This document shows, one piece after another, positions 1,528 through 44,705 of a DNA stretch of 64,000 bases. The DNA is from an uncultured Clostridia bacterium (GTDB taxonomy: Bacteria > Bacillota > Clostridia > TANB77 > CAG-508). The stretch is taken from contig CAMIVO010000001.1 of the NCBI GenBank assembly GCA_946401865.1, forward strand, positions 10,026 to 74,025, written 5' to 3'. How positions within the stretch are numbered: the stretch's first letter is position 1; each line of letters opens with the position of its first letter. The notes under the pieces were generated by a model. The model saw only the letters and a list, made by a program, of their open reading frames with translations. It was not told the origin of the DNA and did no database searches. A program made the translations under genes and the position numbers.

Positions 1528-1740
1528 CTATGTAGTTACAATTCACAACTTTTAAATTTGTTCAGTCCTGCTAGCGGGCAAAACTTTTTATTTTCTTCTC
1601 AGGTTATCCCACTGGGGCTGTAACAATGCTAATGCATTTAACAGCCCTCAGCGGTCCCCCCGAAAACCTTCGTTAAAAATAAAAAGTATCGCCCTGCGCG
1701 GACTTAATATTCTTTTTAGTTGTGAATTGTAGCACATACG
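1528..1740 (-). other. Long GC-enriched imperfect palindrome E1; candidate structured RNA (6S-like rod) or hairpin DNA element
   Basis: Arms 1528-1629 and 1634-1740 align as reverse complements in several blocks separated by internal loops; apex AATGC-taat-GCATT at 1625-1638. A promoter-like signal and a terminator bracket it on the minus strand. Confidence 0.35.
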
Positions 1741-18597: not shown

Positions 18598-19544
18598 GTA
18601 AAAATAAAAAAATAATAATGATAGTCATAATAATATTAATAATTGTAGGTATTTTAATGGCAATTTTTGTTAAACCAAAAAACACTCAAAAAACTGATAA
18701 ATTAAATGTAGTTGCAACTACTTTTTCAACATATGATTTTACAAGACAAATAGTAGGAGATAAAGCAGATATTACATTTCTATTAGGTCCAGGTGTTGAT
18801 GCACACTCATATGAACCAAGTGCAAAAGATTTAGTTACAATAAAAAATGCTGATGTATTTATATATATTGGTGGAGAAATGGAACAATGGGTAGATAAAA
18901 TTTTGGAAACAGATACAATAGACACTAATAAAACAACATTAATTCATGTTACTGACTATATAGAAACAATTGAAGAACAGGAAGTAGATGGGGCTGAAGA
19001 AGAACATGAACATGGTGCTTTTGATGAGCATATTTGGACATCTCCATCAAACGCAATAAAAATGGTAAAATATCTAAGTGAGCAGTTCGGTAAAATAGAT
19101 AATAATAACAAAGAATCTTATGAAAAAAATGCTGAAAATTACATAAAACAAATTGAAAATGTTAGAAATGAAATACAAGAAATTGTTACAAACAAAAAAA
19201 GAGACAGATTAGTTTTTGGAGATAAAATGCCAATGCAATATTTCTTAAATGAATTTGGTCTAACCGCTTCTGCTGCATTTAATGGTTGTTCAACAGAAGC
19301 GGAACCAGGAACTAAAACAATAACCTATCTAGTAAACAAAGTAAAAGAAGAACAAATACCAGTAGTTTTATATATTGAATTAAGTACAGGTAAAACTGCT
19401 AAATCAATAGCAAATGAAACAGGTGCAAAAGTAATGCAAATTCAAACCTTACACAATATAAGTAAAGATGATTTTAAAAATGGAGAAACATATGTAAGTC
19501 TAATGGAACGTAATCTTCCTGTTTTGAAAGAAGCATTGCAATAA
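18594..19544 (+). CDS. znuA: Metal (zinc) ABC transporter substrate-binding protein, ZnuA/AdcA/TroA family
   Basis: 316 aa with an N-terminal membrane anchor, His/acidic loop EEEHEHGAFDEHIW and the cluster-9 SBP pattern. Confidence 0.8.
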   Translation: MSKNKKIIMIVIIILIIVGILMAIFVKPKNTQKTDKLNVVATTFSTYDFTRQIVGDKADITFLLGPGVDAHSYEPSAKDLVTIKNADVFIYIGGEMEQWVDKILETDTIDTNKTTLIHVTDYIETIEEQEVDGAEEEHEHGAFDEHIWTSPSNAIKMVKYLSEQFGKIDNNNKESYEKNAENYIKQIENVRNEIQEIVTNKKRDRLVFGDKMPMQYFLNEFGLTASAAFNGCSTEAEPGTKTITYLVNKVKEEQIPVVLYIELSTGKTAKSIANETGAKVMQIQTLHNISKDDFKNGETYVSLMERNLPVLKEALQ

Positions 19545-19560
19545 TAATTAAGTATCTAAA

Positions 19561-19746
19561 AAATAAATATATAAATTTCATACGCTCCTCGGCTCAATAC
19601 GGTCTCTAGAGAGAGTAATTTTTAACAAACCGAGCCTCTCGCTGCTCTTGCTTCGCAAGCCTTCGCTTCCTCAGTTTATTAAAACCAACTCTCTCTAACG
19701 CGACCTTCAATCACATTCGTCACGTATTCAATTTATATATTTATTT
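19561..19746. other. Long GC-enriched imperfect palindrome E2, inside the znu operon
   Basis: Termini AAATAAATATATAAATT / AATTTATATATTTATTT; apex CTTGC-ttc-GCAAG at 19647-19659. The arms align in blocks (ATACG, GGTC.C.TAGAGAGAGT, TTTAA.AAAC.GAG). Confidence 0.4.
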
Positions 19747-19789
19747 TATTGAAAACTAATTATAGTAATCAAGGAAAGGAACTAAAAAC

Positions 19790-42549: not shown

Positions 42550-42630
42550 AGACTAAATATAATTATATTATGTATAAAACTTCTAAATATGTTAATAATA
42601 AAAATAATTAAGTTTTTAGGAGGATTATAT

Positions 42631-43491
42631 ATGGGAATGCATTTTAGAGAAAGTGAAGAAAAAATCACAATTGGAATGATTGTAGCTGGAATTATAATTA
42701 TAGGTATACTTTTAACAAGTTTAATAGTATATTTGTTAAATGTAAATAGTTCAAAAGTTAATGATAGTGTTTTACAAAATACTCAAATTTCAAAACTAGA
42801 AAATACAGATGAATTTGAAGATGTAAGTAGCGAGTTTGGAAAATCTGTTAATGAAGCTATAAATGAGATAAATTCAGATAGTTCTTTAAATGTAACTTCA
42901 AATACAAATTCAGAAAGTGTTTCTACAAATACAAATACCGAAAATACTTCAAATATAAAATCAGAAAATACCACAATTGAAACAAAAACCAACAGTACGG
43001 ATAATACAAATAAAAATGAAACTTCAGAAACTACTGCTAATATAAATAAAGATGATAAAACTGAAGAAAATAAAGAAGAAAAAAATAATATTACATTTAT
43101 AGAGCCAGTAAAAGGAGAAATTATACGTGAATTTGCGCCAGATTCACTTGTCTATTCTGAAACTTTAAAAGAATGGATAACTCATAATGGCGTAGATATC
43201 AAGGCTGATAAGACAAGTGTTGTTGTTTCAGCATGTGATGGAAAAGTTTCTGCAATAAAAAACGATCCAAGATATGGGCTAACTGTTATAATAGAGCATA
43301 ATAATGGATACAAAACTATTTATGCAAATTTACTAACTGCCGAATATGTTGTAGAAGGTGAAGAAGTAACTGCTGGACAAACAATTGGAACTGTTGGAAA
43401 CTCAGCAAATTTTGAAATAGCAGATGATTATCATTTACATTTTGAAATCATAAAAGATGGAGAATATATAAATCCACTTCAATATTTTTAA
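42631..43491 (+). CDS. M23-family (LytM-type) metallopeptidase with a membrane anchor and a Ser/Thr/Asn-rich linker
   Basis: HNGVDI...GYKTIYANL...HLHFEI motifs. Start placed at the ATG after GGAGG (track ORF starts at 42589). Confidence 0.8.
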   Translation: MGMHFRESEEKITIGMIVAGIIIIGILLTSLIVYLLNVNSSKVNDSVLQNTQISKLENTDEFEDVSSEFGKSVNEAINEINSDSSLNVTSNTNSESVSTNTNTENTSNIKSENTTIETKTNSTDNTNKNETSETTANINKDDKTEENKEEKNNITFIEPVKGEIIREFAPDSLVYSETLKEWITHNGVDIKADKTSVVVSACDGKVSAIKNDPRYGLTVIIEHNNGYKTIYANLLTAEYVVEGEEVTAGQTIGTVGNSANFEIADDYHLHFEIIKDGEYINPLQYF

Positions 43492-43766
43492 AAACTGTCA
43501 ATTAGAATTGCAGTTCAGTTAAAATAATCTTAAAGCCCGCGACAAGTTTATATATTTATTTTTAAAGTAAACTTGTGCGGGGACCACTTTCTTACAAAAT
43601 GTTTTCAAATATGAGAATTTTTAGGAAGCTTGACTTCCGTTAAAAAATTCCATATTTGATTACATTTTTGTTAGAAAGAAGGGATTTACGCATAAAAATA
43701 AATATATAAACTTTAGACAGGGCAAAATTATTTATTTTCTGAACTACAATTATAATTGACAGTTTT
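43491..43766. other. Long imperfect palindrome E3 (276 bp), flanked by T/A-runs on both sides
   Basis: Termini AAAACTGTCAATTAGAATTGCAGTTCAG / CTGAACTACAATTATAATTGACAGTTTT; apex GGAAG-cttga-CTTCC at 43624-43638. An internal inverted pair of AAATAAATATATAAA is shared with E2. Confidence 0.45.
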
Positions 43767-43850
43767 TTTTAAAAATATTTGAAAAATTTTGTATTTTATG
43801 CTAATATATTAAAGAAAAAAATAATGGAGAAATATAAGGGATAATTAGTT

Positions 43851-44705
43851 ATGATAAATATACTTTTATGTGGTAATAATAAAGTTTTTGATGGAATGCT
43901 CACAGAGCTTATATCAATAACCAATAGAACAAATGAAGCAATTAGATGTTATATATTTACAGCAGAATTAACAAGAATAAAAAAAGAATATATTGCACTA
44001 GGTGAAGAAGAAGCTGAATTTTTAGATAATTTAGTAAAATCTAAAAATCCAAATTCAGAAGTAAAATCAATTGACGTTACTTCTATTTATGAACAAGAAT
44101 TTATGAAAAGTCCTAATGAAAGTGCATATTGTACACCATATACTTTACTTAGACTTTTAGCAGATAAGATTGAGGAAATTCCTGATAAATTATTATATTT
44201 AGATGTAGATATGATGATTGATGGTGATATTTCAGAATTATTTAACATAGATATAGAAGATTATGAATATGCTGCTGTAAAAGAAAAATATGGATGTGTA
44301 TTTATTAGACCAGATTATATAAATGCTGGTATGTTACTTTTAAATATGAAAAAAATAAAAGAAACAGGACTTTTAGAAAAAGCAAGAACTAAGATAAAAA
44401 CCAAAAAAATGCTTTTTGCAGATCAAGATGCAGTATATTGGTCAACAACTAAAAAGAAGCTTCTTCCAAGAAGATATAATGAACAATCTAAATTTGATAG
44501 GGAAGACACTTTAGTATGTCATTTTTGCAAGAGACTAATGTTTAGACCATATCCACATACTACAAATTTTAAACAATGGAATATTGAAAAAGTACATAAT
44601 GAATTAAAATGCCATAGATTTGATGATGACTTAAATAAATATTTAGAATTAAAAAAAGAGTTTGAAAAAAGTAAAAGGGGAAAAGTAAAAAATGAATACA
44701 AATAG
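43851..44705 (+). CDS. Glycosyltransferase family 8 protein
   Basis: 284 aa with a YLDVDMMI DxD motif and GT8-type N-terminus. Confidence 0.7.
   Translation: MINILLCGNNKVFDGMLTELISITNRTNEAIRCYIFTAELTRIKKEYIALGEEEAEFLDNLVKSKNPNSEVKSIDVTSIYEQEFMKSPNESAYCTPYTLLRLLADKIEEIPDKLLYLDVDMMIDGDISELFNIDIEDYEYAAVKEKYGCVFIRPDYINAGMLLLNMKKIKETGLLEKARTKIKTKKMLFADQDAVYWSTTKKKLLPRRYNEQSKFDREDTLVCHFCKRLMFRPYPHTTNFKQWNIEKVHNELKCHRFDDDLNKYLELKKEFEKSKRGKVKNEYK

Follow-up and report, generated by a model that had tools for sequence, protein, structure and literature searches.

The locus and its palindrome

The 64,000-nt stretch of DNA analysed here (the window) comes from the genome of an uncultured Clostridia bacterium of the gut and carries, between two genes of the same strand, a long palindrome (E3) whose nature is the subject of this work. 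Upstream lies a gene for an M23 peptidase (300 aa, 42589..43491, +; from the list of open reading frames (ORFs), with Pfam PF01551 at E 1.9e-26), and downstream a glycosyltransferase family 8 (GT8) gene (284 aa, 43851..44705, +; ORF list, Pfam PF01501), which is preceded by its predicted promoter (TTGAAA, 17 nt, TG-n-TAATAT; 43779..43807, +; consensus scan). We identify E3 as a 244-bp copy of a miniature inverted-repeat transposable element (MITE; 43507..43750, +, delimited by blastn census and alignment to its family), and put at about 85% the probability that it is a non-autonomous copy with ends of the IS66/ISBst12 type, inserted at a promoter-relative position into the terminator hairpin of the M23 gene.

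The initial annotation had described a near-complete palindrome of 276 bp (43491-43766) that starts at the last base of the M23 stop codon, and its sequence details hold. The M23 ORF ends at 43491 (TAA at 43489-43491), the 28-nt termini do differ at two positions, arms of 29 nt (43490-43518 / 43739-43767) are 93% complementary, the apex hairpin GGAAG-CTTGA-CTTCC sits at 43624..43638 (+; seen in the fold and invariant across the family), and T-runs are present on both sides. The 15-mer placed at 43547-43561 and 43696-43710 lies, in both positions, inside a perfect inner inverted repeat of 21 nt (left copy AAGTTTATATATTTATTTTTA at 43544..43564, +; right copy, 100% complementary, at 43693..43713, +), which is conserved in all copies. 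The label 'near-complete' was generous: although the fold is real and strong, arm-to-arm identity is only ~72% over the full length. The flanking complementarity, for its part, reaches from 43481 to 43779, beyond the limits first given. For the 291-nt E3 stretch, the RNA fold has -100.3 kcal/mol (z -12.9) and the DNA fold -71.1 kcal/mol (z -13.9), and in neither case was any of 200 shuffles as good. The palindrome is far beyond chance, because E3 is a multicopy repeat.

A family of miniature transposable elements

A blastn census of the window's genome (G000; 1.74 Mb in 90 contigs with 180 contig ends, 26.6% G+C, 96.5% complete) returned 17 full-length internal copies of the E3 family and another nine that were truncated or internally deleted; 50 of the 180 contig ends stop inside the repeat. 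From these sequences we estimate a total of about 50 copies, and 28% of the assembly's contig breaks are attributable to this family alone. The unit is non-coding and measures 244-246 bp between the outer ends of its terminal inverted repeats (TIRs), with no ORF of 40 aa or more inside the 244-bp E3. Copies are 92-98% identical to each other, and their similarity ends sharply at 12-nt TIRs (GTTACAATTCAC...GTGAATTGTAAC, with GTTAC tips), which occur in two classes (GTTACAATTCAC or GTTACAGTTCAG). Perfect 8-bp direct duplications of varied sequence flank nine copies (C21, C22, C24, C40, C42, C43, C5, C3 and C33), and in three others (C2, C20 and C8) the duplication is matched at 7 of 8 positions. 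The nine include a 165-bp deletion derivative (C3) and a 66-bp mini-MITE (G000 C33:15724-15789, ATTACAGTTCAGTAAAAAAC...CTGAATTGTAAT, duplication AAATTACC); the left end of the latter equals 18 of the first 19 nt of an autonomous insertion sequence (IS) in the relative G082.

All 20 copies examined are intergenic, and the 17 situated between co-directional genes usually follow the stop codon of the upstream gene by no more than 100 bp and leave ~100 bp to the start codon of the next. The core of E3 was not found in 40 relatives and had no exact match among species-representative genomes. Among the other copies in the window's genome, the inner arms are A/A, B/B or swapped, and the core of C42 is flipped; arms, and copies too, seem to have exchanged sequence by recombination or conversion.

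E3 is a MITE: it is short, non-coding and multicopy, its TIR boundaries are sharp, its family bears 8-bp duplications, and its ends are shared with an autonomous element (see below). The initial annotation had proposed a family of hairpin elements defined by shape rather than by sequence. Membership in a family stands, as many more copies of E3 were found genome-wide, but what defines the family is sequence (12-nt TIRs and 8-bp target duplications), and no new 'shape-defined' class of elements is needed for the 276-bp palindrome.

It could be argued that E3 evolved in place, as a purpose-built giant bidirectional terminator or as a structured RNA gene, given its very stable fold, the T-runs on both sides and the usual position of copies just past stop codons. 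We regard this as extremely improbable, since ~50 copies of 92-98% identity with TIRs and target duplications bespeak transposition. Copies are, besides, found in both orientations relative to the neighbouring genes, and Rfam covariance models gave no match at gathering score in the window (only weak, generic hairpin-like microRNA matches far below threshold).

Shared ends and autonomous relatives

Strong enrichment of the TIR 12-mer was seen in 47 of the 81 same-genus genomes, with as many as 47 matches vs 0-2 for the reversed control. There, TIR pairs are spaced ~60-80, 146, 200-250, 296 and 460 bp apart and enclose interiors that are diverse and unrelated to that of E3. Judged by sequence comparison, this is a genus-wide superfamily with only the ends in common.

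A search for DDE_Tnp_IS66 (PF03050) in same-genus genomes recovered six complete single-ORF elements of 1.5-1.95 kb, all with GTTAC... ends and perfect 8-bp duplications: L194 in G082 (1823 bp, end GTTACAGTTCAGTAAAAAATTTT, duplication ATTTGAGG), L191 in G154 (1672 bp, end GTTACTGTTCAGAC, duplication CAATATTT), L202 in G059 (1544 bp, end GTTACTGTTCAGCC, duplication TTTATTTA), L205 in G161 (1704 bp, end GTTACTAGTCAG, duplication TTCAATTA), and L195 in G148 and L177 in G055 (1907 and 1954 bp), which have the same end (GTTACTAGATAATGG) and the duplications CTTACAGG and CATTGATG, respectively. Their ORFs (400-537 aa) match both PF03050 and NF033517, with no separate TnpA/TnpB, and the NF033517 scores, which fall below the NCBI cut-off, mark them as distant members. 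The 12-nt end of L194 is identical to that of copy C40 of the E3 family, and the left end of E3 itself (ATTGCAGTTCAGTTAAAATA) equals the L194 end at 16 of 20 positions. Two of these genomes (G154 and G059) each hold, besides the IS, palindromic MITEs of 204-253 bp with the same ends and perfect 8-bp duplications. For comparison, ISDge4, a member of the ISBst12 group from Deinococcus geothermalis, has the TIRs GTGACTACTCAGCA / GTAACTGCTCAGCA, encodes a transposase of 449 aa and shows the direct repeat CCTCGATG of 8 bp (PMC12898284).

The likely mobiliser of the E3 family is an ISBst12-type IS66 transposase. The gene-less E3 would be moved by such a DDE enzyme acting in trans, which would recognise ends of the form GT(T/A)AC(A/T)(G/A)TTCA(G/C) and, upon insertion, make the 8-bp target duplication.

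Other transposases were considered as the parent and set aside. In five TIR-rich genomes there was no match to PF00872, PF12762 or PF01610, the matches to PF01609 and PF00665 are without the TIR, and the rve-type IS of the window's genome has different ends and duplications of 22-24 bp. This 1.17-kb IS (C19:7201-8372 and C27:9651-10823; rve-type transposase, PF00665; ends TTGTAGTGTTACAATTGATGTGAAAC) is flanked by unusually long direct duplications (22 and 24 bp), and its C19 copy interrupts a Y1/RAYT-like gene (motif YCLMNNHVHLVI).

It is conceivable, if very improbable, that E3 is a palindrome of the kind known as repetitive extragenic palindromic sequences (REPs) and bacterial interspersed mosaic elements (BIMEs), spread by a REP-associated tyrosine transposase (RAYT; HUH/Y1), or that it was moved by the PD-(D/E)XK 'putative transposases' found beside sister elements. 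The window's genome does contain a Y1/RAYT-like gene fragment and GC-rich REP-like palindromes; REPs, however, are palindromes of 20-40 nt that make no target duplications and are without such TIRs, and the REP-like units of this genome differ in sequence. The PD-(D/E)XK proteins owe their candidacy to the genome G042, where the same TIRs bracket an AAA-ATPase_like/PDDEXK_9 gene, and to G016, where two mini-MITEs flank a PDDEXK_2 gene. Yet the TIR association of PDDEXK_9 is confined to G042 (9 complete and ~70 further loci elsewhere are without the TIR), the G016 mini-MITEs have duplications of their own and hence are separate insertions, and an IS66-type DDE transposase with identical ends exists.

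The two arrangements deserve description in their own right. In G042 (L041-L050, L089-L092, L093-L142) the TIR lies 120-165 bp upstream of a gene with AAA-ATPase_like (PF09820) and PDDEXK_9 (PF08011) domains at no fewer than 10 contig ends, and once ~85 bp past the 3' end of that gene; copies of the gene in other genomes are without the TIR. The G042 unit is probably a cassette with a passenger gene, multiplied by the same transposase. In G016 (L035, contig C13) the mini-MITEs, at 539-606 (68 bp) and 1658-1735 (78 bp), carry the family ends and an 8-bp duplication each, and bracket in direct orientation the gene for PDDEXK_2 (an Rpn-like 'putative transposase').

Spacing to predicted promoters

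We scanned all 98 element-tip flanks of the window's genome for outward-facing sigma-70-like promoters (TTGACA, 16-18 nt, TATAAT; 10 or more of the 12 positions matched). Within 80 nt of the tips there were 32 outward matches, many of them consensus-grade, and in 18 of these the -35 box begins 36-40 nt from the tip (mode 38-39). In simulation, a 5-nt cluster of this kind has a probability of < 5e-6; an AT-rich random control gave ~0.4 matches per 5-nt bin, and inward-facing matches totalled three. At the loci of relatives, 11 of 39 flanks had a promoter match, every one of them at 37-40 nt. The autonomous copies show offsets of 39 nt (L202 and L205), 28 and 35 nt (L177, the 35-nt site having a poor -10 box) and 28 nt (L194), with weak off-register matches at L191 and L205 (5 and 33 nt). 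In elements of the GTTACAGTTCAG end class the distance was exactly 28 nt in all three checked, namely C40, the IS L194 and E3, whose tip at 43750 is followed at 28 nt by the -35 box TTGAAA (43779-43784). A second MITE of the window, E1 (described below), has a TTGACA-17-TATAAT promoter from 1772, 38 nt beyond its right tip. The same arm faces the promoter in 9 of the 10 copies with distinguishable arms, E3 being the exception.

The insertion machinery appears to choose a promoter-relative position, because selection alone would not give a precision of 5 nt. Sites would be taken at a fixed distance upstream of sigma-70-type promoters, 36-40 nt for the common end class and 28 nt for E3 and the other members of the GTTACAGTTCAG class. 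As to the cue, we tentatively suggest, at somewhat less than even odds, that ISBst12-type machinery reads promoters directly, either by contact with promoter-bound RNA polymerase or through bent A-tract DNA upstream of the -35 box, in these fixed registers and possibly with a preferred orientation; the 28-nt register is about one helical turn closer than that of 36-40 nt. Such reading, if true, would explain how ~50 copies accumulated without gene hits and how some, E3 included, came to lie within the terminator of the gene upstream. Were the targeting real, promoters in uncultured Clostridia could be located from the positions of these elements, and the enzyme could be developed into a means of inserting DNA close to promoters.

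A mosaic copy within a probable split terminator

E3 is a mosaic. Its element positions 38-210 (core, 43544-43716) are ~100% identical to canonical copies, and the outer ~30 nt at each end are of the GTTACAGTTCAG class, as in copy C40 (G000 C40:5874-6108). In the alignment, its left TIR (ATTGCAGTTCAG, 43507..43518, +) agrees with GTTACAGTTCAG at 10 of 12 positions, and its right TIR (CTGAACTACAAT, 43739..43750, +) with CTGAACTGTAAC at 9 of 12. The tips read ATTG/CAAT vs GTTA/TAAC in sister copies, with the same two changes at both ends, and this copy is probably no longer mobile, because its tips are degenerate on both sides.

What lies outside these ends is peculiar to the locus. The outermost ~17 nt of each 28-nt terminus (AAAAACTGTCAATTAGA / TATAATTGACAGTTTTT) were found at no other copy, and CTGTCAATTA adjoins a family end only here. 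T-run length aside, each of the flanks 43481-43506 and 43751-43779 is an inverted copy of the other. We read them as two halves of a host hairpin: a putative left half at 43481..43508 (+; AATATTTTTAAAAA, stem CTGTCAAT and loop; an inverted copy of 43749-43779) and a putative right half at 43749..43779 (+; stem TGACAG, T8 at 43763-43770, and AAAAATATT; recognised from the sequence, the inverted repeat and the rejoined fold). The candidate target duplications fall within these halves, ATTAGAAT on the left (43501-43508, +, in the symmetric reading) and ATTATAAT on the right (43749-43756, +). Removal of the 240-bp period (43509-43748) and one ATTAGAAT/ATTATAAT copy leaves AATATTTTTAAAAACTGTCAATTAGAATTGACAGTTTTTTTTAAAAATATT, which begins directly after the M23 stop and has an 8-bp stem, a 4-nt loop, an A-tract/T-tract extension and a T8 end. 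With this extension included, the fold energy of the rejoined flanks is -15.3 kcal/mol, a value at the 0.3 percentile for random 52-mers. The predicted empty-site hairpin is CTGTCAAT-TAGA-ATTGACAG, within a predicted insert-free M23-GT8 spacer AAAAACTGTCAATTAGAATTGACAGTTTTTTTT.

E3 probably split a pre-existing terminator, because its rejoined flanks give a hairpin followed by T8 directly after the M23 stop. The extra-long palindrome would be the sum of the MITE and this split terminator, the halves of which now flank E3 and would have lengthened it to 276-299 bp. The appearance of a giant bidirectional terminator with ~135-bp arms, as first annotated, would stem from a probable ordinary terminator hairpin split by an insert. 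The target at this locus would have been the hairpin apex, 28 nt upstream of the glycosyltransferase -35 box, and the position of E3 inside a terminator would be a by-product, since the terminator of the upstream gene lies at the promoter-relative target. Termination of M23 transcripts is predicted to be retained, because E3 folds back on itself and the old stem and T8 can still close in RNA; the downstream glycosyltransferase promoter would have been left untouched by the insertion.

In relatives, M23 genes also have a hairpin directly after them, and copy C24 likewise lies within a terminator-like hairpin. A consensus terminator scan of the present sequence returned no intrinsic terminator at the E3 locus. 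A general preference for hairpin targets was rejected, as 13 rejoined sister sites fold at a mean of -4.0 vs -3.9 kcal/mol for random sequence.

The outer stem (AAAAACTGTCAATTAGA / TATAATTGACAGTTTTT) could instead be part of the element, in which case E3 would represent a sub-family with TIRs of ~29-40 nt and no host terminator would have been entered. The 8-mers that flank the aligned tips are indeed inverted rather than direct, both tips deviate alike from the canonical end (ATTG/CAAT), and, measured from the aligned tips, the distance to the promoter is exactly 28 nt. We nevertheless judge this reading unlikely: the extension occurs on no other copy in the genome, the mates of E3 in end class (C40 and the IS L194) finish at GTTAC with clean duplications, the complementarity reaches into the M23 coding sequence, over its final 11 nt, and the flanks, once rejoined, form a hairpin next to the stop codon that is followed by T8.

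Several observations weigh against the preferred reading of E3 as a MITE inserted at a promoter-relative position into the M23 terminator. There is no clean 8-bp direct duplication at the aligned tips, where the flanking 8-mers (CAATTAGA, TATAATTG) are inverted, and a direct repeat appears only with a 240-bp insert (43509-43748) that is 2 nt shorter per tip than in sisters. In the 12-mers CAATTAGAATTG / CAATTATAATTG, direct and inverted readings fit equally (11 of 12 each), because the hairpin apex is itself palindromic, and the insert boundaries are uncertain by ±2 nt. The restored hairpin holds only three G-C pairs. No empty-site allele was found by protein look-ups, in relatives or in metagenome contigs: exact-protein look-ups of the M23 and GT8 proteins returned nothing, the closest M23 orthologues are only 66-67% identical, and neither the predicted empty site nor the M23 3' end was matched exactly in metagenome contigs. 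At the E3 locus, upstream of GT8, gene order differs from that in relatives. The promoters are consensus matches, not mapped start sites. Finally, the PF03050 search of the window's genome found no IS66-family transposase in the assembly, so that its copies are either orphaned or their IS was lost in assembly or binning.

Other repeats of the window and its genome

The initial annotation had grouped E3 with two further palindromes, E1 and E2, in one family, but only the first has its ends in common with E3. E1 (199 bp, 1535..1733, +; repeat and end comparison) carries the ends of E3 (GTTACAATTCAC ... GTGAATTGTAGC), is present in three genome copies and has an interior unrelated to that of E3; variant ends (TTCAAATTCACAGC, GTCTAGTTCAGTC) are found on its sister copies. 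By its ends, it belongs to the same superfamily, as a second family of MITEs. E2 (19544..19763, +; repeat comparison) is a member of another small repeat family, with 4-5 genome copies and different ends. The 15-mer of E3 does recur at both ends of E2 (positions 19561 and 19732), as annotated, but the sister copies of E2 are without it, and this AT-rich 15-mer is the only thing common to the two. Its 76 occurrences in the genome (~1 expected from base composition) comprise 71 in the E3 family, two in E2 and three unrelated singles; as a tie between E2 and E3 it is weak evidence and may be an AT-rich coincidence.

The MITEs of G154 (L217-L220) hold E2-like interior motifs, CTCGGCTCAATAC ... CGCATTCG (CTCGGCTCAATACGG ... 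AATCACATTCG), within GTTAC-type arms. In L219, moreover, an AT-rich inverted repeat equals the inner 21-mer of E3 at 17 of 21 positions and at the same offset. The elements may thus be modular, made up of ends, an AT-rich inner repeat and an exchangeable core. A second, GC-richer repeat system is represented in the window by a REP-like unit at 11994-12048 (a 27-nt inverted pair around GGTACCGGAGATTTTTGACATAT), and a similar unit adjoins the copy at C13:37500.

Comparison with known systems

E3 is an ordinary kind of element, a MITE, of a family for which we found no description in the literature searched: a text search for the TIR returned unrelated primers only, and searches that linked IS66 to MITEs yielded nothing relevant, nor did we find IS66/ISBst12-derived MITEs described. 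Its closest likeness is to the ISBst12 group of the IS66 family (ISBst12, ISDge4), with which the E3 family has in common the end type GT(A/T)AC..TCAG and the 8-bp duplication; in this group, duplications measure 8-9 bp and ends are of the GTAA/GT(T/A)AC type. In the ISBst12-type elements of same-genus genomes, which are 1.5-1.95 kb long, ends identical to the MITE ends enclose a single DDE_Tnp_IS66 ORF, whereas E3 has no transposase, measures 244 bp, is palindromic throughout and has no autonomous copy assembled in its own genome. Promoter-proximal targeting was not described for the ISBst12 group in the literature that we searched, and searches on IS elements with promoter targeting gave nothing relevant.

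The Correia/NEMIS elements of Neisseria and the RUP elements of Streptococcus pneumoniae are likewise short multicopy elements without coding capacity that lie between genes, form hairpins, end in TIRs and are mobilised in trans. Correia elements have a TA duplication and a 26-bp TIR, and RUP is linked to an IS630-type element; the E3 family, unlike these, has an 8-bp duplication of varied sequence and IS66-type ends, and is not the same family. Mobile insertion cassettes (MICs), in which IS ends carry passenger genes, resemble the G042 unit, where the TIRs bracket a passenger gene (AAA-ATPase_like and PDDEXK_9) in at least 10 contig-end copies, none of them assembled in full. E3, in contrast to MICs, carries no gene.

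Of these findings, the sharp spacing to promoters most deserves further work. Its 5-nt precision is suggestive of a DDE transposon for which promoter architecture serves as a safe-harbour signal. The yeast retrotransposons Ty3, Ty1 and Tf1 insert at a fixed short distance upstream of transcription signals and so spare genes, and direct reading of promoters, if true, would be a bacterial counterpart of the polymerase-guided targeting by Ty3 and Tf1. The likeness is one of working only: the yeast elements employ unrelated enzymes on eukaryotic polymerases, whereas here the spacing is to predicted sigma-70 promoters.

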